A DNA stretch of 64,000 nucleotides, taken from IMG/VR virus record IMGVR_UViG_3300034980_000290. One strand, written 5' to 3'. This stretch comes from a virus. Lineage: Duplodnaviria > Heunggongvirae > Uroviricota > Caudoviricetes. Both the position numbers and the translations under genes were made by a program. Of the stretch, positions 1,249-36,392 are shown in pieces. The notes under the pieces are model-generated. The model saw nothing but the letters and a program-made list of their open reading frames with translations, was not told the origin of the DNA and made no database searches. Numbering within the stretch: the stretch's first letter is position 1; every line of letters begins with the position of its first letter.

Positions 1249-2271
1249 TTGAAGAGACAGATCTTGGCGTGTAAGCTGAACGATCCCCACGGGGAACTGA
1301 GCCACGACCACGTGAACGTACTGTTCGCCGGGTCAGTAAGGCTGGCAGACATGGAAGGGTGGGACATCACCACCCGTCTTCTATGTTTCGAGGATGGTAA
1401 GCAGACAGAAGACCACCTCCTCAACTACCCCAAGTTCCCGCCCATGTTCGTTCTGCTGGATAGCGGGGCGTTCTCAGCATGGACGAAGGGCAAGGCCATC
1501 AACCTGGATGACTACGTGGATTGCATCATCCGCCATCGGGGCGTTGTCTGCCACGCTGCCAACCTCGACGTTATCCCCGGGCGGCAGGGCCAGAAACAGA
1601 TTTCAGCTTACGAGAACAGGAGAGCAGCCAGCGAGGGCTGGATGAACTACCGATACATCCTGGCCCGGCTGCGCTGGTTGGGACATGAGGACCTGTGCAG
1701 CAGAATCATGCCCATCCACCACCAGGGTGAGAGCATTGACATCCTCAAAACCATGATCGATGAGGGGTGTCAGTACGTCGGCATCAGCCCAAGCAACGAC
1801 GCCAGGACCAAGCAGAGGATGAAGTACCTGGATGAGGTCTTCACCTATCTGTCATCGCAGCCCACCCGCATCCTGACCCACGGCTATGCAGTGACCAGTG
1901 AGACGCTGATGGACAGCTATCCCTGGTTTACGGTTGACTCCATCACCTGGATTTACATCGCCGGGTTCGGGATGGTCAAGACGCCCATGGGAGCGTTTAG
2001 CTTCAGCGAGGATCCTCGTTCCCTCAAGAGCAAGGACAATCTTCGATTAGTAATCGACGAGGGAGGGGAGTGGCGGACGGACAACACGGACTTCCAGGGA
2101 TCACAGGCGGATCTGGAACGGTACATCCGTGAAGAGCTGATGACAGATGTCAACACCTTGGCTCAGGACTACTGGGCCAGAGCACTCGCCAACATCCTCT
2201 ACTTCAAGCACTTCCAGAAGACTGCTACAGGAAAGCAGAGGCAACACCTTGAAGTTCCACTCTTTGGCTGA
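1249..2271 (+). CDS. tRNA-guanine transglycosylase-like protein, possible DpdA-type DNA 7-deazaguanine transglycosylase
   Basis: 340 aa; motif FVLLDSGAFSAW resembles the TGT catalytic Asp motif (LTDSGGYQ); later THGYAV and FTVDSITW resemble TGT second-Asp and LGxG regions; TTG start at 1249, alternative ATG at 1351. Confidence 0.35.
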   Translation: MKRQILACKLNDPHGELSHDHVNVLFAGSVRLADMEGWDITTRLLCFEDGKQTEDHLLNYPKFPPMFVLLDSGAFSAWTKGKAINLDDYVDCIIRHRGVVCHAANLDVIPGRQGQKQISAYENRRAASEGWMNYRYILARLRWLGHEDLCSRIMPIHHQGESIDILKTMIDEGCQYVGISPSNDARTKQRMKYLDEVFTYLSSQPTRILTHGYAVTSETLMDSYPWFTVDSITWIYIAGFGMVKTPMGAFSFSEDPRSLKSKDNLRLVIDEGGEWRTDNTDFQGSQADLERYIREELMTDVNTLAQDYWARALANILYFKHFQKTATGKQRQHLEVPLFG

Positions 2272-2455
2272 CCTACGTTGCTATATAGGCACACCCACAG
2301 GGCCACAAGAAGCGACCAGAAGCGTTTGGTCAAAACTGTGCCGGGTGTATATTACCACGTGAGCTATGCAAACGCCTCCTATGTGGGCGGCGGGCATCAA
2401 GGCAAACACGGGCAGCGCGAGGGCAAACCTTGCAGAGCCCAAAGGAGCAAGCGCA

Positions 2456-2929
2456 ATGGCGAAACGGACGCAGAAGGGTAAGGTCGCCCCCAAGGCACCA
2501 CGCATGGGTCGTGGCAAGGCGACGGCGAGCGGAACGGCGGGCAAGCCCACCGCGAAGAAGGCCACCAAGAACGCCCCGGCGAAGAAGCCCGCCGGTCGCA
2601 AGCCTGCCGCGAAGACGCAGCCCACCGAGGGTGAGGCGTTCGTGTGCAAGATGGGCGAGTCGCAGGTCGGCGTCACCGTCAAGTCCGGTGAGACCCTGTA
2701 CGACATGCTCAAGCGGGCCGTCTTCCCCCGGGGCACCTTCAAGACGAAGGCGGGCACCGACATCACCAACCTCATCGCTGCTGCCGAGCAGGATGTGGCC
2801 CAGGGTCAGGCGACCAGCGTCGCCGCCTGTTTCCAGGACTTGCGGGTGGACGGGATGGGGGCGACCCTCGAAACGCCCATCAAGCCGGGCGTGATCGTCA
2901 CGCTGGTGCCCAAGATCACAGGCGGCTGA
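2456..2929 (+). CDS. ubiquitin-like beta-grasp protein with C-terminal Gly-Gly and histone-H1-like Lys/Ala/Pro-rich N-terminal tail
   Basis: ATG 2456 preceded by aaggag RBS at 2441-2446; protein ends ...IVTLVPKITGG immediately followed by stop, as in ThiS/MoaD/ubiquitin; N-terminal 60 aa are AKK/PAK repeats. Confidence 0.6.
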   Translation: MAKRTQKGKVAPKAPRMGRGKATASGTAGKPTAKKATKNAPAKKPAGRKPAAKTQPTEGEAFVCKMGESQVGVTVKSGETLYDMLKRAVFPRGTFKTKAGTDITNLIAAAEQDVAQGQATSVAACFQDLRVDGMGATLETPIKPGVIVTLVPKITGG

Positions 2930-2956
2930 TTCAACAGGCAGTGCGGCTGGAAGCTC

Positions 2957-2990
2957 AGGGCCGGGGGATAACGACCCCGGCCCCCTTTTT
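2957..2990 (+). terminator. rho-independent terminator
   Basis: gggccgggggataacgaccccggccc stem-loop followed by cctttttgg. Confidence 0.6.
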
Positions 2991-3001
2991 GGAGTGCCCA
3001 A

Positions 3002-4546
3002 ATGAGCGAGATTGCTGAACTACAGCCTGGGACAGCGTTCACCAAGTCCAACTGGCGGGCCTACACCAGTTCGACGCCCGGTGAAGCCGCTGGAGTCCTC
3101 GGCGCGTACCCGGAAGTGCGGCAAGACTTCCTAGATGCGTTGGGTGATCTCGCCGGGCAGATCGAGCGTGACATCTGCGTGTGCGTTGACAACCACTTCC
3201 CGTTGGGTGTTGACGAAAAGGAAGATCGCTACACCGAGAAGCAGTACCGGACCATCTACCTGCACGTGTTCGCTGCTCCCAAGGAAGCTGAGGTCACAGG
3301 GTGCCCGCAGCTCCCCTCAACGGTGTCGGTGAGCGGCGTGGAGTATGACCTCCGTGGTTGCCAGAGGGACTACCTGGAGTACGACCTCGCCCCCCTGAGC
3401 ATGATGGCCGTCAAGACCGACGGTGACGCCCAGGGCTTGGGATACAACCTGTGCCTCTTCCGTGGCCACCACCTTTACCTGAGTGCCGACCTGTTTGACA
3501 ACCGGGGCGACGAGTGGGAGAAGGGCGGTGAGGCTGACTCGGTGTGGAAGGAGCGCACCACCGAGTTCGCCATTGACTCCTGCCAAATGATCCTTGAGCT
3601 CGTCACTGCGGCGGTCGGGTGGCTGGTGCAGAGCGACACCCTCATGAGCTTCGAGGAGTACGAAAAGAAGCGCATTGAGAGGGTGTATGAGGCTTGGAAG
3701 TCCCTGCACGGGATCATGGTCAAGCAGGCATCGGTCGGCTTGACCATGAAGCTACAGAGGGCCGAGCGTGACGAGCGTACCTATCGGCGCCAGCTTGAGG
3801 AAGCTGAAGAGTTCTTACTCAAGGCCATGGCTGACCTCCATGCTGCCAAGATGCAGATGAAGGGTGTCGAGGACGGCATGACCGAGGTGTCCGTGCTGGG
3901 CAACGAGGAAATGTTCAGAAACTTGATGTCCTACTACTACGAGGACATCAAGGTCACGGGAACCGGCGGCAGCCAGACGATCACCGCAACCACGCGGATG
4001 ATTTACATCAAGGAGGAAATCCCGGTCGACATCATGAAGACCAAGGGGATGCACGTTGGCGCCGGGGAGTACAGGAACCGTGATGACATTGAAGTCCGCA
4101 TGGGCATCTTCAAGATTGGCCAGCTGAGGATCACCATTCCCATTGGCCGTGAAGATGGTGTGGGTGGCATGGGCCAGATCGTGGCCAAGAACCTGATACC
4201 CATCAAGGCACAGGATGAGTGGTGCCAGCAGACCGGCGGTGAAATCTATCACCCGCACATCAGGGGTGATGCCGGAACCAGCATCTGCTGGGGCAACATG
4301 GGTGAGCCGGTGCGAAAGCTGAGGGCAGAGAACAACGTCATGGTCTTGCTACAAGTCCTGGCGCAGTTCTTCTTCAGTTACAACCCGGCTGACGCCTACA
4401 ACCGAGTGTGGATGTGGCCAGAGGTGACGCCCGAGGACGGGTTCACCGAAGATGACCTGGTGTACGATTGCAGCAAGAAGGATGTTGGCGCGACCACCGT
4501 GGATGGTGAAGTAGCTCCGCGGCGGCGTGCAAGGAGGACTATCTAA
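3002..4546 (+). CDS. large protein with C-terminal UBC/E2-like domain
   Basis: 514 aa; C-terminal GEIYHPHIRGDAGTSICWGNMGE matches the E2 HPN...C active-site architecture (Cys 9 residues after HPH); central coiled coil; stop overlaps start of JAB gene. Confidence 0.45.
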   Translation: MSEIAELQPGTAFTKSNWRAYTSSTPGEAAGVLGAYPEVRQDFLDALGDLAGQIERDICVCVDNHFPLGVDEKEDRYTEKQYRTIYLHVFAAPKEAEVTGCPQLPSTVSVSGVEYDLRGCQRDYLEYDLAPLSMMAVKTDGDAQGLGYNLCLFRGHHLYLSADLFDNRGDEWEKGGEADSVWKERTTEFAIDSCQMILELVTAAVGWLVQSDTLMSFEEYEKKRIERVYEAWKSLHGIMVKQASVGLTMKLQRAERDERTYRRQLEEAEEFLLKAMADLHAAKMQMKGVEDGMTEVSVLGNEEMFRNLMSYYYEDIKVTGTGGSQTITATTRMIYIKEEIPVDIMKTKGMHVGAGEYRNRDDIEVRMGIFKIGQLRITIPIGREDGVGGMGQIVAKNLIPIKAQDEWCQQTGGEIYHPHIRGDAGTSICWGNMGEPVRKLRAENNVMVLLQVLAQFFFSYNPADAYNRVWMWPEVTPEDGFTEDDLVYDCSKKDVGATTVDGEVAPRRRARRTI

Positions 4547-6291
4547 TGAGCGGCGAGTTCAAGCCACCCCTGCCCCGGATACGGCGGCAAATCGGGGAGC
4601 TGGGAAGCCGACGAGATCCAAAGGAAACCGGACTGCGGGTGTACATCCCGCTCCCGGTGTACCAGAAGATGTCGGCGTTGACCATGAGCGCGGAGAGCGA
4701 AACCAGCGCCATGGGATTCGTGCACCTGGAAAAGGACAGCGACATCACGACGCTGGGCCAGGAGGTGTGGGTAGACGAGCTGGTGTTTGTCAAGAACAAG
4801 TCATCGGCCGCATCCACCGAGCTTGACCAGGACGATCTGGCCCAGGTGATGATGGCCAAGATGAAAGAGGGGCGCGACTTGATGCACATGCGCCTCTGGT
4901 TCCATACGCACTACAACTTCGACGTGTTCTGGAGCCCCACCGACCGCAACGCCAGCAAGAACACGCTGGAGAACAGCCGGTGGACCCTCAGCATTGTGAT
5001 GAACCAGAGGCATGAGCTCCGCGCTTGTGTGGACGTGTACCGCCCTGAGCATCACTGGTACGACGAGGTGCCCATCTACCTTGTGTTGGATTGCCCGACC
5101 CAGAAGTGGGACAGGTGGGCGAAGCAGGCACACAAGCGGATCAACTCCGAACGCATGATCGCCCTTGAGGACTGGCGAAGTGCTGGCGGTGACGAGCAGG
5201 GCCAGGAGTTGAGCCCCGAGTTCATCGAGCGCATTCGCAAGGAAGGCGGGATCGTCACCAGGGAAGACGCAGGCAAGAACAAGGCCGAGGTGGTTGAGGG
5301 TGACCCCGATGACCACAACGTGATTCATCACGTGTGCTCGTGCAACAAGGTGCTGGAGGTTCCGGCATCCTGCAAGAAGTTCAAGTGCCCCGAGTGTGAA
5401 CAACATTGGGACTTGAATTACAAGACCCAGGACGGGAAGGGTTCCAAGGGGCAGGCGGATGATCCAGAGCAGCAACTGACGGCTGACAGGCTGTACGTTG
5501 ATGCCTTGCAGATGCAGACGCACTTGAACGAGGAAACCGACCCCAAGGCGCTGAACGGCTTCCCGTGCAAGGAACTCTTCATGCCTGCTGTTGATGAGGA
5601 GTTTGTCGGTGGCGCTTGCTTCCCGTATGTCGAGGACGTCATCGACAACGTGGAGTACATCACGGCGGACAGGTTCGTGGAGCTGGAACTGGTGTTCCTT
5701 GGCACCCATGGACACATGAGGGTCTACGCCAACGGGACTCAATACTACTGCACCGATGACCACCCCACCCTCTCGACGGTGTTCAGTGCATCATTTGCAT
5801 CGAGCGTGGAAACCGACCAGTGGCCGAACCGATTCATCCCGGTGCGTGACGACAACGCGACCGTGGTGGCGTTTGGCGAACGAGCCACGAGCATCTGGTA
5901 CGACCTTTGGCTCAAGACTTACGTGTCCACCTACCACGATCACTCCAAGGCGGAGGATCCCACCGGGGACATCGAATACTTCGATGACATGAGCGAGCGC
6001 AGGGTCAAGAACGTGATCAGCGCCATGCTCATCGAGCGGCAGGAAGGTGGCTCCCGTGCGAACCAGCCATACCAGCCCAACCTACCCAGCCCGCCCGCGC
6101 CAAGGAGATTGGTGCAGAGTGGGGCCGGGAAGGCCCGTGTCGGGCAACCGTATGGGCAGGGTGCCTTGCGCTGGGAAGAATGGTGTGCCCAACGACAGGA
6201 CAATCCTGTCAAGGTCAGGCGCAGGGATGGCGACGGCAGCCTGAAGAACGTCAGGCTTCGGTTGGATGCGACCAACCTGGATCCGGCATAG
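4546..6291 (+). CDS. JAB/JAMM (MPN+) metalloprotease-domain protein with C-terminal zinc-ribbon region
   Basis: 581 aa; exact JAMM motif HTHYNFDVFWSPTD (HxHx7Sx2D); Cys cluster CSCN...CKKFKCPECEQHW; start overlaps upstream stop (ATGA). Confidence 0.6.
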   Translation: MSGEFKPPLPRIRRQIGELGSRRDPKETGLRVYIPLPVYQKMSALTMSAESETSAMGFVHLEKDSDITTLGQEVWVDELVFVKNKSSAASTELDQDDLAQVMMAKMKEGRDLMHMRLWFHTHYNFDVFWSPTDRNASKNTLENSRWTLSIVMNQRHELRACVDVYRPEHHWYDEVPIYLVLDCPTQKWDRWAKQAHKRINSERMIALEDWRSAGGDEQGQELSPEFIERIRKEGGIVTREDAGKNKAEVVEGDPDDHNVIHHVCSCNKVLEVPASCKKFKCPECEQHWDLNYKTQDGKGSKGQADDPEQQLTADRLYVDALQMQTHLNEETDPKALNGFPCKELFMPAVDEEFVGGACFPYVEDVIDNVEYITADRFVELELVFLGTHGHMRVYANGTQYYCTDDHPTLSTVFSASFASSVETDQWPNRFIPVRDDNATVVAFGERATSIWYDLWLKTYVSTYHDHSKAEDPTGDIEYFDDMSERRVKNVISAMLIERQEGGSRANQPYQPNLPSPPAPRRLVQSGAGKARVGQPYGQGALRWEEWCAQRQDNPVKVRRRDGDGSLKNVRLRLDATNLDPA

Positions 6292-6357: not shown

Positions 6358-7107
6358 ATGCAAGACACGGGTGAACAGTTCAAGCGCCAAGCTGAGTTCA
6401 TCCCGCGTAGTACCTGGGAAGGCGTGACTGTTCACGTTGTCGGGTGCGGCGGGATTGGATCAGTGGCGGCGCTGGGACTGGCCAAGATCGGAGCCAGCAG
6501 GATCATCCTGTATGACGATGACACCATCGAGCTCCACAACGTGCCCAACCAGATGCTGACCGCCAACGGGGATGCCATGGGACAGCCCAAGGTGGCAGAC
6601 CTGGGCGGGATCCTGCTCGACTTTGGCGGCGAGCACATCGACGTCATCGCCGAGAACCGGCGCGTGACCACCGAAAACCCGCTGCGGATCGAGGATAGGG
6701 AGGGCCTTCACCTTGTCCTGTGCGGCCCTGACAACATGGAGACCCGCAAGGAGGTCTTCGAGTTCTGCTGCGCCCGCGACGATGTGGTGGGGTTTCTGGA
6801 TGGCCGCATGGCCAGTCGGTTCTTCACGCTGCACGTGGTGGACACGAACGACGAAGCTGAAGCCAAGGAGTACCTGGACGCCTTCTACAGCACTGAGGAG
6901 GCTGAAGAACTGCCGTGCAGCGACCGGGCCGTCTTCCACACCAACATGGTCCTTGCGGCCATGATCTGTGAACAAGCGCGGCGCATCCTCATGCACGCGC
7001 AGGAGGCTTTGGGCACCATTGACCCGGAACAGGTTTTCCGCGAAACGCCAGCGGTGAATACGAAGGTGATGTTCGACCTTACGAACCTCACCCTCATGGT
7101 TGACTGA
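6358..7107 (+). CDS. ThiF/MoeB-family E1-like adenylyltransferase
   Basis: Rossmann motif VVGCGGIGS, YDDDTIELHNVPNQ (D-D-V-SNL-RQ-like), LCGPDNMETR (DCTDNxxTR motif); ATG 6358 with aaggag RBS; ORF track start 6313 is GTG. Confidence 0.65.
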   Translation: MQDTGEQFKRQAEFIPRSTWEGVTVHVVGCGGIGSVAALGLAKIGASRIILYDDDTIELHNVPNQMLTANGDAMGQPKVADLGGILLDFGGEHIDVIAENRRVTTENPLRIEDREGLHLVLCGPDNMETRKEVFEFCCARDDVVGFLDGRMASRFFTLHVVDTNDEAEAKEYLDAFYSTEEAEELPCSDRAVFHTNMVLAAMICEQARRILMHAQEALGTIDPEQVFRETPAVNTKVMFDLTNLTLMVD

Positions 7108-7117
7108 GGAGACTCAC

Positions 7118-7837
7118 ATGCCCCTTTGTATCAAATGCCGTGTGCAGCACTGCGGAGATCACAAGTGTGCGTGCACGCTGAATCACCTGCGCATCCAGGG
7201 GCGGTGCCGTGCTGGGACGTTCTACCAGATCCAGCCCGAGGCTGGTGGAAACAGGACGCAACCGAATGGCATGTGGCGGGACCTGGGCCTGAAGATCAAC
7301 CTCACCCAGCCACTTGAGCGATACATCGCCAAGCCCAGGCGCAGCCGTGGTGAGATTCAGGGCTACCAGATCTGGCACATGATGGATGCCGCTGGGCTCC
7401 AGTGGCCGACTGATCCCACCACAGAAGGTGGGCTGTTGTTGGTTGACCACCAGAAGTTTCACGACTCGGACATCGCGCACATGCCCGATGACTGGAAGCA
7501 GACAGTAAAAGCTGTGGTGGATGACATTCCCGGCCTCTACTTCCGCAGTTTCACTCACCTCAACGCCAACAACTGGTTCGAGCGGGTGGGTGACTTCAAG
7601 GCTGACGAGACCGGGAACTTCCCACTACAGAAGTGGACCAGGTGGCTCGCCACCAACCCTGACAAGCCGCAGGTGGCCCTGGACAACTACATCCTCGTCA
7701 AGCAACGGTCTTGGCGTGAAGAATATCACTTTCAACTTGTGCAGATGGACAACAGACTGGTTCATCACCGAGTATTTGCGCCCCTCCGGCAGAAGCTGCT
7801 GGAACGTATTCAGTCGTTCGTAATGACTGTCGTATAG
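7118..7837 (+). CDS. Cys-rich zinc-finger protein (last gene of Ubl operon)
   Basis: N-terminus CIKCRVQHCGDHKCACTLNHLRIQGRC; ATG 7118 after gaggag; overlaps E1 stop. Confidence 0.45.
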   Translation: MPLCIKCRVQHCGDHKCACTLNHLRIQGRCRAGTFYQIQPEAGGNRTQPNGMWRDLGLKINLTQPLERYIAKPRRSRGEIQGYQIWHMMDAAGLQWPTDPTTEGGLLLVDHQKFHDSDIAHMPDDWKQTVKAVVDDIPGLYFRSFTHLNANNWFERVGDFKADETGNFPLQKWTRWLATNPDKPQVALDNYILVKQRSWREEYHFQLVQMDNRLVHHRVFAPLRQKLLERIQSFVMTVV

Positions 7838-7893: not shown

Positions 7894-8292
7894 ATGACTG
7901 ACGAAGCGATCCCCCAGGTGCAGCCGCCGGAGCCGGTGGCCCAGGAAGCCCCTCCCACAGCGCCCGCCATTGGCGATCCGGCGCCGCCCCCGCCTGCCGC
8001 CGAAGCCGCGCCCGTCCCCGAGGTGGCCGTCCCCGAGGCCGCGCCGGTTGCGGAAGCCGCCGCTGCCCCTGCCGCCACCGCCGAGGCTGCCCCGGCGAAG
8101 AAGGGCGGAAAGCCCCGCAGCGAGTTTCCGAACTGGGTCGCGACTCAGTACAAGGACAAGGATGCCCCGTTCACGGACGTGCAGGTGGACTGCGACCCGG
8201 CGAACAACATCGTCACTCTCCGCTGCACCACGGCGGGGGGCAAGACGACCACCAGCAAGATCCGCGTCAACGGCATCAACACCGTCGGTTAG
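7894..8292 (+). CDS. Pro/Ala-rich hypothetical protein
   Basis: aaggag RBS 7879-7884; 75-aa PAPEA low-complexity N-terminus then a roughly 55-aa globular tail. Confidence 0.5.
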   Translation: MTDEAIPQVQPPEPVAQEAPPTAPAIGDPAPPPPAAEAAPVPEVAVPEAAPVAEAAAAPAATAEAAPAKKGGKPRSEFPNWVATQYKDKDAPFTDVQVDCDPANNIVTLRCTTAGGKTTTSKIRVNGINTVG

Positions 8293-27202: not shown

Positions 27203-27647
27203 AGAGCAAGTGATGGAATACGAAGGCAGGGACAGACTTGAGCGATTTGCGCTCAAGCACAAGCTGGCGATTGAGCTGGAAGGCGAGGTCGGCTTCGGGC
27301 GTGAGTGCGTTGGGCTGACGCACGGCAACAACTACATCGGCTATCACCCATGGGTGTACAAGCAGAACGGAACGCTGCACCCGGACCTGGTGGAGCACCC
27401 CGATCCCAAGATCATGGACCCGCGCCTGAAACCGCCGAAGGGTTACGCCCCGGATGCCTATCATAAGCACACATGCGTCTGCGTCTTGGGCCGCAGCCCT
27501 GATGCCATCGCTCAACTGGTGGCGTGGGCAGACTACTACGAAGAGCTGGGCGTGGAGGCCGTGGACTACGAGACCGGCGCTACCGGCTTGCAGGCCATGA
27601 TGACCGGCGTGCTGGGCAAAGCCTTCGCCGTACTGGAGCTTGAGTGA
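27192..27647 (+). CDS. hypothetical protein
   Basis: 151 aa; stop overlaps thyA start. Confidence 0.4.
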
Positions 27648-28501
27648 TGAAACAGTATCTTGATGCCCTTGGGCAAATCATGGACGGCGGTCACGACAAA
27701 GGTGATCGCACAGGTACCGGTACACGTAGCGTCTTCGGCATGCAGATGAGGTTCGATTGCAGCGGACCGAATCTGCCGGTGGTGACCACCAAGAAGCTGT
27801 TCCTGCGCGGCGTCATTCACGAGCTGCTGTGGATCATTTCCGGTAGCACGAACATCAAATACCTCGTTGACAACGACGTGCACATCTGGGATGAGTGGGC
27901 TGACAAGAACGGCGATCTTGGCCCGGTGTACGGCAAGCAGTGGCGGAAGTGGGAGGGGCAGATTGATCGAGTAGCAATCAATGAACAGCCTGATCCGGGA
28001 GAGCCACCGATACTGCTTGGCTACAAACAGATTGATCAGCTGAAGGATGTCATTGAGCGCATCAAGACCAACCCCGACTGCCGCCGCCTGATCGTTACGG
28101 CTTGGAACCCACCGGACATCGAATCTGCCACGCTGCCGCCCTGTCACTGCTTCTTCCAGTTCTGGGTGTGCGATGGGCGCATCAGCCTTCAGATCTACCA
28201 GCGGTCGTGCGACATGTTCCTGGGTGTGCCGTTCAACATCTTCAGCTACTCGCTGCTGCTCAGGATGGTGGCGCAGGTGACTGGCTTGCTGCCCGGAGAC
28301 TTCATCTGGACCGGCGGTGACTGTCACATTTACAAGAATCACTTCAAGCAGGTTGAGCTGCAACTGGAGCGAACGCCCATGGGAGGCCCGGCCATCTGCC
28401 TCAACCCCGAGGTGCGCAACATTGACGACTTCACGTTTAGTGACATAGACGTGGTTGGCTACAAGAGCCATCCCGCTATCAAGGCACCTGTGTCCGTGTG
28501 A
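27644..28501 (+). CDS. thyA: thymidylate synthase
   Basis: near full-length match to bacterial ThyA: MKQYLDAL...DRTGTGT...PPCHCFFQF (catalytic Cys)...[14 protein letters not shown]...[10 protein letters not shown] (Asn kept, so dUMP-specific). Confidence 0.9.
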
Positions 28502-35426: not shown

Positions 35427-36392
35427 ATGCCGACAAAGACAACCAAGAAAACCGCCAAGAAGGCGCGAAAGAAGCGTACGCCCAAGGTCAAGCACGACCC
35501 GGTGTACGATCGCAATCTCCTCAAGCAGCTCGTGAGAACGTGCTATGACCTTCAGGAGAAGAGGATGGCCCATGGGCAGCGCCAGAAGGCCCTTGCCCAC
35601 CGTGGAATGCCAGAGCTCAACGAAAGCGACACAGGCGCCTTCGCCGAAATCTTCGGCGGCTTCAAAGACGTTGAAAGGCTCATCGAGAAGCAGATCCATA
35701 AGGTGCTGAAGAGGTTCCCAATCTGGACCAAGTGGTTGGACGAAGTCACAGGTGTTGGCCCAATGATGGGCGGCATCATCGTGAGCAAGTTCGACCCCTA
35801 CGACGCACCAGCCCCTGAAGGCTACGGGGTTGAACACGCTGGTGCCTATGAAGGCAAGTACCTGTTCCGTGAGTGCATTGACAAGGAGAAGGACACCTGG
35901 AATGTTGAGGAGCGCGAGTGCATCATGCGCCAGCGCACCGTCAGCCAGTTTTGGGCGTACTCCGGACTCCACACCATCGAGGTCGATGACAAGGAGGGTG
36001 GCAGGAAGCGTGTGGCGGCGCGGCAGGTAGCTGGGAAGCAGGGCAACTACGAGACATGGCTCAGGGCCAAGCTGTTGGGTGTCCTGGGTGACATCATGAT
36101 CAAGGGAGGCAGCCCGTACAAGAGGTACTACGACGAATGCAAGAAGCGTCGTATAGCCATGGGCTGGGGCACGACCGACATGCACCGGCACAAGGACGCC
36201 AAGCGGCACATGATGAAGTGTTTCATCATGGACCTCTACGTGCAGTGGCGTACGGTGCTTGACCTTCCGGTCAGGGCACCGTACGCCCTTGCAAAGATGG
36301 GGTTGTCCCCGGCGCAAGCGTTCCATGTAGAGGAACACCCAGGGTGGAACAGAAAGGACGCCGCTGAGGCGGCAGCAGCAGCAAATGGATGA
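35427..36392 (+). CDS. basic protein with helix-hairpin-helix region resembling IS110-transposase C-terminal (Transposase_20-like) domain; no DEDD nuclease domain seen
   Basis: Lys-rich N-term; VTGVGPMMGGIIVSKFDPYD and QFWAYSGLHTIEVDDKEGGRK...GNYETWLRAKLLGVLGDIM...YKRYYDECKKRR pattern. Confidence 0.35.
   Translation: MPTKTTKKTAKKARKKRTPKVKHDPVYDRNLLKQLVRTCYDLQEKRMAHGQRQKALAHRGMPELNESDTGAFAEIFGGFKDVERLIEKQIHKVLKRFPIWTKWLDEVTGVGPMMGGIIVSKFDPYDAPAPEGYGVEHAGAYEGKYLFRECIDKEKDTWNVEERECIMRQRTVSQFWAYSGLHTIEVDDKEGGRKRVAARQVAGKQGNYETWLRAKLLGVLGDIMIKGGSPYKRYYDECKKRRIAMGWGTTDMHRHKDAKRHMMKCFIMDLYVQWRTVLDLPVRAPYALAKMGLSPAQAFHVEEHPGWNRKDAAEAAAAANG

Follow-up and report, generated by a model that had tools for sequence, protein, structure and literature searches.

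Ubiquitin-like (Ubl) conjugation in bacteria has so far been described as a host weapon against phages (Bil, CBASS Cap2) or as a stress system (Bub). Bil systems, which encode BilA (Ubl), BilB (E2), BilC (JAMM), and BilD (E1) and carry out antiphage Ubl conjugation (PMC10557695; 10.1101/2023.09.04.556158), have a Ubl with a conserved C-terminal Gly that is sometimes followed by a few residues removed by the JAMM enzyme, and single-β-grasp Ubls with variable N-terminal extensions exist in type II Bil. Bub (6E/DUF6527) operons (PMC11601596, PMC11601603) share the E1/E2/Ubl/peptidase chemistry. The archaeal SAMP1/SAMP2 proteins with UbaA and the ThiS/MoaD sulfur carriers have no E2; their Ubls are about 70–90 aa without a tail, and they act in sulfur transfer, with SAMPs acting also in E2-independent conjugation. 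In phages lambda and T1, the TAPI-TAPK pair combines a β-grasp protein bearing a conserved Gly with a JAB peptidase (PMC1779556).

Here, we analyzed a 64,000-nucleotide window (the whole stretch of DNA examined) of an uncultured marine phage of about 110 kb, in which a small Ubl with a terminal Gly-Gly and a highly positively charged, disordered N-terminal tail is encoded beside a putative E2-like protein, a JAMM peptidase, and an E1, right beside DNA-base-modification genes. All features of the window given below with coordinates lie on the plus strand. Compared with Bil, the same gene order (Ubl, E2-like, JAMM, and E1) is found, but (i) the cassette is carried by a phage and not by a bacterial chromosomal defense island; (ii) no PADLOC or Pfam Bil model matches the Ubl, E2-like, or JAMM proteins, and no Prok-E2 or Prok-JAB Pfam hit was obtained, whereas the BilD model matches only the adenylation domain of the E1 (1.2e-4), more weakly than many CBASS E1-E2 models; (iii) the E1 is a single adenylation domain, whereas BilD has an inactive plus an active adenylation domain and an inserted Cys domain (PMC10557695); (iv) the E2-like and JAMM proteins are 514 and 581 aa, with large extra domains; and (v) the Ubl tail is polybasic. 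Compared with Bub, the genes are separate, with no Ubl-E2, JAB-E1, or E2-E1 fusion and no DUF6527 hit, no Bub model matches apart from weak hits to the adenylation domain of the E1, and the setting is a phage. Compared with TAPI-TAPK, which has no E1 or E2, sits in the tail module, and carries its Ubl as the N-terminal part of a larger protein, the cassette lies in the early/DNA-metabolism part of the genome. We could not find this combination of a tailed Ubl, its enzymes, and adjacent DNA-base-modification genes described for any virus of bacteria.

The Ubl and its polybasic tail

The Ubl gene (2456..2929) starts with an ATG at 2456, ends with a TGA at 2927–2929, and encodes 157 residues ending in LVPKITGG. 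A ribosome-binding site (AAGGAG, 2442..2447) lies 8 nt before the ATG, and the homologs in two related contigs (L001 and L002) also start with MAK behind a Shine-Dalgarno-like sequence. An upstream in-frame ATG at 2366 would add 30 residues, but it was rejected because this stretch has no ribosome-binding site and is absent from the gene calls of the relatives. JGI called the gene from Met17 (entry P0001), which would still keep 40 residues of the tail. The third-position GC of the gene is about 0.88, the highest in the window, where the median is 0.74.

The N-terminal tail (2456..2626; residues 1–57) contains 13 Lys, 4 Arg, 13 Ala, and 7 Pro and no Asp or Glu, giving a net charge of +17, and is predicted to be disordered (pLDDT below 50). 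The remaining 100 residues are acidic (pI 5.3). A search of 1.84 billion cluster representatives found only 13 relatives, all from metagenomes, of which 12 have basic tails. The basic tail is more than chance: four lineages whose tails differ in sequence and length (45–57 aa) all keep a net charge of +15 to +18 with no acidic residue. A short motif, A-P-[KR]-[MLI]-G (residues 14–18), is kept in 8 of 13. One relative, P0014, has a non-basic tail, so charge is not strictly required by the family. The third-position GC of the tail is 0.84 in the called frame versus 0.60 and 0.67 in the other 2 frames, and the tail is the most Lys-rich polybasic stretch among credible genes of the window. The tail resembles the Lys/Ala/Pro-rich DNA-binding tails of the histone H1 C-terminal domain, chlamydial Hc2, and mycobacterial HupB in composition, lack of acidic and hydrophobic residues, and predicted disorder, although it is shorter and is fused to a Ubl. 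The similarity is compositional only, because the Pfam HC2 model (PF07382) gave E 0.1 and 13.1 bits against a gathering score of 40; membership in the H1/Hc2 family was therefore rejected.

Residues 58–157 (2627..2926) form a predicted β-grasp domain with a conserved helical insert (NLIxAAExxVxxG) and a C-terminal Gly156-Gly157. The best structural neighbors are SAMP1, MoaD, ThiS, TtuB, and CysO, and a BFVD viral fold search gave only weak ubiquitin-like hits. The Gly-Gly is invariant in 13 of 13 members; it is terminal in 10 and followed by LS, SN, or SVN in 3.

The observation in the original prediction, a Ubl with an exposed C-terminal Gly-Gly fused to a Lys/Ala/Pro-rich tail, is confirmed, and the tail sequence that it gave corresponds exactly to residues 2–53. 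Its two refuting conditions, a start downstream of the tail or a fold other than β-grasp, were examined, and the evidence above goes against both. Its interpretation is supported only in part. The exposed Gly-Gly holds, the tail is very probably translated, the E1 to which it pointed exists with ATG 6358 as the likely start, and E2-like and JAMM genes lie in between, so that a conjugation cascade is the natural reading. However, an exposed Gly-Gly is not unusual in itself, as ThiS, MoaD, SAMPs, and many BilA proteins end that way. N-terminal extensions on bacterial Ubls, namely N/G-rich tails (some of them disordered and of low complexity), coiled coils, and DUF1508, preceding a single C-terminal β-grasp domain, are already described (PMC11601603), but none is described as Lys/Ala/Pro-rich and polybasic; what is new is this kind of tail and the phage setting. 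The proposed DNA tethering and poly-Lys chain acceptance remain inferences. The original prediction missed that the cassette is in a phage and invariably adjacent to the DpdA/7-deazaguanine module.

The E2-like, JAMM, and E1 genes

The Ubl gene is followed by an intrinsic-terminator-like hairpin (2958..2993) of 9 G-C pairs followed by CCTTTTTGG. A strong hairpin plus T-run sits at the same place in 5 of 5 loci with no sequence conservation (−27 to −41 kcal/mol).

The next gene (3002..4546) encodes a 514-aa protein comprising an N-terminal domain of no recognized family with invariant polar residues, a predicted long helical, possibly coiled-coil, middle segment (low-confidence model), and a C-terminal E2(UBC)-like core with HPH at residues 417–419 (4250–4258) and Cys429 (4286–4288). 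The HPH...CxG motif is invariant in 5 lineages. In a profile search of PDB, about 45 of 56 weak hits (E of 0.1 or more) were E2 enzymes aligned at HPN-Cys, and hhalign against four E2s gave a probability of 63% and E 7e-5, covering HPN-Cys and helix 2. No Pfam or PADLOC hit was obtained, and an AF2 model built from two sequences had a mean pLDDT of 37, too poor to assess the fold. The E2 assignment thus rests on a motif plus sub-threshold profile matches.

The start of the JAMM gene (4546..6291) overlaps the stop of the E2-like gene (TAATG). It encodes a 581-aa JAMM/MPN+ peptidase in which the HxHx7Sx2D motif (residues 120–133, 4903–4944) and an upstream Glu are invariant, followed by a zinc ribbon (residues 264–284) and a C-terminal part without a recognized family. 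A profile search against PDB returned Rpn11-like JAMM proteins (E 1e-3 to 1e-2) aligned on the motif, and the Pfam JAB model gave E 0.0097 for the homolog in related contig L007.

The E1 gene (6358..7107) encodes a single ThiF/MoeB-type adenylation domain of 249 aa from ATG 6358, with a GxGxxG motif and an invariant Cys (6916–6918) in LPCSDR. AAGGAG sits 7 nt before ATG 6358, and the homologs begin at the position of Met16. The Pfam ThiF hit has an E value of 6.9e-20; in PDB, the best match is MoeB (1.5e-9), then ThiF, UBA5, and BubCD, the adenylation domain hitting Citrobacter BubCD at 1e-6. The E1 proteins are 249–264 aa and align with MoeB/ThiF over one adenylation domain, leaving no room for a second. 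The Arg of the NLxRQ ATP-binding motif is Asn here. The E1 gene is three genes downstream of the Ubl gene in every locus long enough to show it.

Genomic setting and distribution

The window and its relatives are phage contigs with terminase, portal, capsid, and tail genes (tail tube and tape measure), and one relative, L006, is an IMG/VR viral contig. The same five-gene order was found in independent lineages (the window, L001, L002–L004, L006, and L007), and the order Ubl-E2-JAMM-E1 in 5 lineages. A DpdA-type (TGT-family) 7-deazaguanine DNA transglycosylase gene (1249..2271; phrog_887, 8e-36) lies immediately upstream of the Ubl gene, and is directly upstream in 7 of 7 lineages at 55–73% identity. 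QueD, QueE, QueC, FolE, and QueF lie upstream in L002, and QueC, FolE, and QueF in L006. Contig look-ups for P0001 and a second entry, P0005, to view the region upstream of the window found no record, so this upstream gene content is documented for relatives only.

Searches by tblastn with the Ubl and the JAMM protein, and by megablast with 20 kb, against 50,697 GenBank phages gave no match, although 180 phage records carry annotated queuine tRNA-ribosyltransferase/DpdA homologs; no cultured relative was found. Pattern scans with the first Ubl alignment found nothing in IMG/VR, JGI metagenomes, or GTDB genomes, and the E2-like protein found nothing in IMG/VR. A wider Ubl alignment found one IMG/VR contig (L006). 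The JAMM alignment found no hit in 185,579 GTDB species genomes, but in IMG/VR it found L006 plus a distant compact E2-JAMM-E1 triad whose upstream part is cut off. Pfam, PHROGs, NCBIfam, and PADLOC gave no hit for the Ubl, the E2-like protein, or the JAMM C-terminal part. An Rfam search of 2200–3100 at E up to 1 gave nothing, so no known preQ1 riboswitch precedes the Ubl gene, and a tRNA scan of the window found none. A conserved structured 5′ UTR was also considered and set aside, because conserved blocks exist only among the three closest loci and vanish with seven.

Proposed function of the cassette

We consider it more likely than not that the Ubl is the modifier of a phage-encoded conjugation cassette whose modifier carries a nucleic acid-binding tail. 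The sequence itself shows the 100-residue β-grasp domain with a free Gly-Gly end, the preceding 57-residue tail, and a gene with its own ribosome-binding site, the strongest codon bias in the window, and a conserved terminator before the enzyme genes, which fits a modifier made in large excess over its enzymes. The catalytic steps are inferred from homology: the E1, probably a homodimer, would adenylate Gly157 and may hold the Ubl as a thioester on the Cys of LPCSDR; the Ubl would pass to Cys429 of the E2-like domain and then be joined by an amide bond to an amine on an as yet unidentified target; and the Rpn11-like JAMM enzyme would reverse this and, in relatives with 2–3 extra residues, trim the precursor. 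Such cassettes conjugate Ubls to protein lysines in bacteria (PMC10557695; 10.1101/2023.09.04.556158), and the gene overlaps within the cassette suggest translational coupling. That the tail binds nucleic acid, most likely DNA, is inferred from composition only, and nothing shows that it would bind DNA rather than RNA or another polyanion. The modifier would then be concentrated on DNA and mark DNA-associated proteins, or would give its targets DNA affinity, and its many lysines may also accept further Ubl copies.

The tail may have no nucleic acid role, which we regard as possible but doubtful: it could be a lysine-rich acceptor for Ubl chains, a flexible spacer or solubility tag, a docking segment for the enzymes or a target through the A-P-[KR]-[MLI]-G motif, or a signal that takes the protein into the capsid as a packaged polycation. 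Its 13 lysines lie in a disordered segment, the motif survives in an otherwise drifting tail and even in P0014, and other bacterial Ubls carry N-terminal extensions thought to drive self-association (PMC11601603). By contrast, a net charge of +6 to +17 is kept in 12 of 13 members and acidic residues are absent from the tails of the window's own subclade, which is the signature of polyanion-binding tails; Arg replaces Lys freely (for example, 7 Lys and 7 Arg in P0007), which fits charge but not an acceptor function; and the gene is not in the structural module. A ThiS/MoaD/SAMP-like sulfur carrier, with the E1 forming a thiocarboxylate for synthesis of a thio-modified base or cofactor and the JAMM enzyme only processing the Ubl, is improbable. 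The nearest structural neighbors (SAMP1, MoaD, and ThiS) are, or double as, sulfur carriers, the E1 is closest to MoeB and ThiF, JAMM peptidases accompany sulfur carriers in known operons (PMC1779556), and a base-modification pathway is adjacent. However, an E2-like protein with HPH...C is present in every lineage, no rhodanese, cysteine desulfurase, or sulfur-inserting enzyme or synthase was detected in the block, a 57-residue polybasic tail has no place in a sulfur carrier, and no thio-deazaguanine is known in phage DNA (PMC10516641). Least likely of all is that the tail is absent in vivo, through a start at Met17 or Met66 or removal after synthesis. Apart from the JGI call, this reading is favored by the two occurrences of K-M-G (APKMG and CKMGE), in which both Mets are widely conserved. 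It is opposed by the Shine-Dalgarno sequence and MAK start in 3 lineages, the frame-specific codon bias, the conservation of A-P-K before Met17 at the protein level, and a reading frame that stays open over 28–59 codons in all 13 relatives despite indels.

A further reading, which we consider unlikely, is that the cassette is the last step of the adjacent 7-deazaguanine DNA-modification pathway and that its target is DNA. In this view, the tail docks the Ubl on DNA, and either E1/E2 join Gly157 to the 7-aminomethyl amine of dPreQ1, or the N-terminal amine of the tail is linked to a 7-deazaguanine base by an NDG-type (N-terminal deazaguanylation) reaction and DpdA inserts that base into DNA; the result would be reversible, enzyme-written protein-DNA conjugates, that is, ubiquitin-like modification of DNA, removed by the JAMM enzyme before packaging. 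Besides the DpdA adjacency, preQ1 is the expected base from the genes of the relatives, phages are known to methylate or formylate that same amine in DNA (PMC10516641), a QueC-like and a TGT-like enzyme (Cap9 and Cap10) conjugate a deazaguanine to a protein N-terminus in type IV CBASS (10.1101/2025.04.06.647259), and all 13 Ubls have a small second residue, so a free N-terminal amine after Met removal is expected. However, the seven lineages are one syntenic phage clade, so the adjacency may be inherited gene order and not seven independent observations, and the 180 phages with DpdA homologs lack this cassette. A gap of 96–187 nt (88–93 nt in the short contigs L009 and L011) separates DpdA from the Ubl gene, with a possible promoter in the three closest relatives. 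DNA carrying 16-kDa adducts could not pass a portal, so removal before packaging would be needed. The N-termini are MAK, MAS, MSP, and similar, and not the M(G/S)G(G/S)GG of NDG substrates; the DpdA and QueC genes look like ordinary DNA-modification enzymes; and no E1/E2 system is known to acylate a nucleobase.

If the conjugation reading is correct, a complete cassette carried by the phage itself would show that viruses of bacteria also write Ubl marks, as many eukaryotic viruses manipulate ubiquitin. Its histone-tail-like polycation would make the modifier one that brings DNA affinity with it or works on DNA-bound targets. The fixed position beside the DpdA/preQ1 genes raises a testable link between Ubl chemistry and DNA hypermodification, at a time when a nucleobase-protein conjugation (NDG) has just been found in type IV CBASS. 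The proteins are small and should be easy to express. The E2-like (HPH...C) and JAMM (Rpn11-like) proteins are closer in motif to the archaeal/eukaryotic kind than many prokaryotic E2-like families are, which bears on how such modules spread.

A conserved gene downstream of the E1 gene

The E1 gene is followed by a gene (7100..7837) for a 245-aa protein, which had no family hit in Pfam, PHROGs, NCBIfam, or PADLOC and whose start overlaps the E1 stop by 8 nt. The protein carries an N-terminal CxxCxxQx4HxC motif. It is present after the E1 gene in 5 lineages with the motif invariant, and is a possible fifth member of the cassette, perhaps an adaptor.

Polybasic N-terminal tail of the ubiquitin-like protein

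The plus strand carries an ORF that extends from ATG 2456 to the stop codon at 2927–2929 and encodes a protein of 157 residues ending in LVPKITGG, with the sequence AAGGAG located 8 nt before the ATG. Residues 1–57 contain 13 Lys, 4 Arg, 13 Ala, 7 Pro, 7 Thr, and 6 Gly and no Asp or Glu, giving a net charge of +17, whereas the remaining 100 residues are acidic (pI 5.3). The original prediction, namely, a ubiquitin-like protein (Ubl) with an exposed C-terminal di-glycine fused to a histone H1-like tail, was thus confirmed as an observation, and the tail sequence reported therein is exact. The resemblance to histone H1, however, is a compositional echo and not family membership, because the only match in the family libraries was Pfam HC2 (histone H1-like nucleoprotein) with an E-value of 0.1 and 13 bits against a threshold of 40. 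A second protein with a polybasic N-terminus (PTKTTKKTAKKARKKRTPKVKH..., net +12 in 45 residues) is encoded at 35427–36392.

To examine whether the tail belongs to the protein, which had been set beforehand as a condition that could overturn the prediction, we compared the family members. A word-indexed search of 5.8 billion proteins found 4 relatives, and an HMMER scan of 1.84 billion cluster representatives with a profile of the β-grasp domain alone found 8 clusters below 1e-10; in total, 13 family members are known. The comparison revealed that (i) all 13 members had an N-terminal low-complexity extension of 28–59 residues in frame with the domain, despite many indels; (ii) the 3 lineages for which DNA was compared started with MAK behind a Shine-Dalgarno-like sequence; (iii) the sequence of the tail drifted but its charge did not, with +14 to +17 in the subclade of the window and +6 to +11 in the more distant members, and only 1 member (P0014) was neutral; (iv) the third-position GC of the tail codons was 0.84 in frame, compared with 0.60 and 0.67 out of frame; and (v) a short motif, A-P-[KR]-[MLI]-G, survived in 8 of the 13 tails. 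The JGI gene call, which starts from Met17 (protein P0001), would still leave 40 tail residues. We therefore conclude that the tail is very probably translated and that its charge is under selection.

Predicted fold and C-terminus

An AlphaFold2 prediction based on a five-sequence alignment gave a disordered tail (pLDDT below 50), followed by a domain of β-β-α-α-β-β topology formed by residues 58–152 with pLDDT values of 70–84. The Gly-Gly pair is invariant in the family. Ten of the 13 members stop immediately after it, and the other 3 add LS, SN, or SVN, which implies a processing peptidase in those lineages.

Neighboring genes

The gene at 3002–4546 encodes a 514-residue protein that had no hit in the family libraries. 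Five lineages share an invariant HPH...CxG motif, and in a profile search of PDB sequences about 45 of 56 weak hits were E2 enzymes aligned exactly on HPN...Cys. An hhalign comparison with 4 E2 sequences gave a probability of 63% and an E-value of 7e-5, spanning HPN-Cys and helix 2 with its NPxDP-like turn, although structure prediction yielded no usable model. Therefore, we designate this protein E2-like with moderate confidence. Its N-terminal domain (residues 1–175; 3002–3530) carries residues invariant in 5 lineages (H65, P67, H88, Q121-R122-D123, H157, Y159, D163, D166, and W172) and had no match in any library, and it may be a second catalytic or substrate-binding site fused to the E2-like core.

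The gene at 4546–6291, the start of which overlaps the preceding stop codon (TAATG), encodes a 581-residue protein with a perfect JAMM motif, HTHYNFDVFWSPTD. Its profile hit Rpn11-type deubiquitinases with E-values of 1e-3 to 1e-2, and the motif region is followed by a zinc ribbon and about 300 unassigned residues. The gene at 6358–7107 encodes a single ThiF/MoeB adenylation domain (Pfam 7e-20; MoeB 1.5e-9; also UBA5 and BubCD) with an invariant Cys in LPCSDR. Alignment with homologs and an AAGGAG sequence place its start at ATG 6358, as the original prediction had assumed for this E1.

The next gene (7100–7837) encodes a 245-residue protein whose start overlaps the E1 stop by 8 nt and which is syntenic in 5 lineages; its N-terminal CxxCxxQx4HxC motif is invariant in these lineages, whereas the rest is poorly conserved, and the protein could be an adaptor or E3-like partner. 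Two genes after the cassette (7894–8292) lies a gene for a small protein with a long acidic Pro/Ala/Glu-rich N-terminal region, the charge opposite of the Ubl tail, and a conserved C-terminal domain, which is syntenic in a distant relative (contig L006, 15170–15520). A distant, compact version of the enzyme set (L013, 20–1373; L014, 8–1533), comprising an E2-like protein with HPH...C, a 242-residue JAMM protein without the long C-terminal part, and a 243-residue E1, was found on a JGI metagenome contig that is cut off where a Ubl gene would sit.

Expression features

A hairpin of 9 base pairs, all of them G-C, with a T-run is located at 2958–2993, between the Ubl and E2-like genes. All 5 loci examined have a strong hairpin plus T-run at this place with unrelated sequences, that is to say, the structure is conserved. 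The Ubl gene also has the highest GC3 in the window, and together these features suggest a modifier made in large excess over its enzymes. The 184-nt spacer before the Ubl gene (2272–2455) contains an extended -10-like TGTATATT and blocks (GTGAGCT, GGCAGCGC, and GCAGAGC) shared with the related contigs L001 and L002; these are not shared with more distant loci, and the spacer had no Rfam match.

Genomic setting

The window is phage DNA and encodes terminase, portal, capsid, tail tube, and tape measure proteins; no tRNA was found in it. Pfam hits among the other genes (7900–61190) include thymidylate synthase (ThyA, probably at 27644–28501), a sigma-70 factor, an Rrf2 regulator, an SPFH/Band 7 protein, an HU-like DNA-binding protein, a HAD_SAK_2 domain protein, and a group-1 glycosyltransferase next to the capsid genes.

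The gene immediately upstream of the Ubl gene (1249–2271) encodes a DpdA-type DNA transglycosylase (phrog_887, 8e-36) with 180 phage homologs. A DpdA ortholog (55%–73% identity) lies directly upstream of the Ubl gene in all 7 lineages for which DNA was available. In the 2 lineages where more upstream DNA is visible (L002, 4031–7684; L006, 6044–8261), it is preceded by QueC, FolE, and QueF and, in L002, also by QueD and QueE; the corresponding Que genes of the present phage would lie just upstream of the window. By analogy with PMC10516641, such phages are expected to carry 7-deazaguanine, probably dPreQ1, in their DNA. All these contigs, which are from ocean (Tara) and other metagenomes, form one syntenic clade, and the repeated adjacency is therefore suggestive but not independent evidence. 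The family was not found in 50,697 GenBank phages or 185,579 GTDB genomes and appeared on a single IMG/VR contig.

Putative mechanism

We consider it somewhat more likely than not that the genes form a phage-encoded Ubl conjugation cascade working like Bil, in which the E1 would adenylate Gly157, the Ubl would pass by thioester to Cys429 of the E2-like protein and then be joined to an amine, and the JAMM enzyme would trim the Ubl and reverse its attachment. In this view, the tail is a disordered polyanion-binding, most likely DNA-binding, region, which would concentrate the modifier on nucleic acid or give DNA affinity to whatever is modified. What the analysis establishes are the sequence features themselves, whereas all of the chemistry is inferred from homology and DNA binding is inferred from composition only. 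The interpretation in the original prediction is thus supported in part: the fold (as predicted), the Gly-Gly end, and the translated tail hold, whereas the proposed tethering to DNA or chain formation remains an inference.

Among the alternatives, a tail without a nucleic-acid role, serving instead as a chain acceptor, docking motif, or packaging signal, is possible but doubtful. It is unlikely that the target is DNA itself, through a deazaguanine base. The as yet unexplained linkage to the deazaguanine module makes an unusual hypothesis directly testable. A sulfur-carrier function of the Ubl is less likely still, and the absence of the tail in vivo is only a remote possibility.

Comparison with known systems

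Although the cassette would work like Bil, it does not qualify as a member of the Bil systems: no Bil HMM matched apart from the generic adenylation domain, the E1 lacks the two-domain architecture with a Cys insertion described for BilD (PMC10557695), and the setting is a phage. The cassette is not a Bub system, because it has no fusions and no DUF6527, and it is not a plain ThiS/MoaD system, because an E2-like protein is present. N-terminal extensions on bacterial Ubls, including N/G-rich tails, coiled coils, and DUF1508, have been described (PMC11601603), but a polybasic tail is not among them. The only phage Ubl/JAB pair that we found in the literature is the lambda TAPI/TAPK tail-assembly pair, which has no E1 or E2 (PMC1779556). 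The family is rare, with 13 sequences in about 15 billion. The next-nearest relatives of the Ubl domain (proteins P0015, P0017, P0019, P0020, and P0021) consist of 2 or 3 tandem short β-grasp repeats, most of which end in ...VPK[VI]KGG, with variants such as IKGN, resembling polyubiquitin-like precursors.
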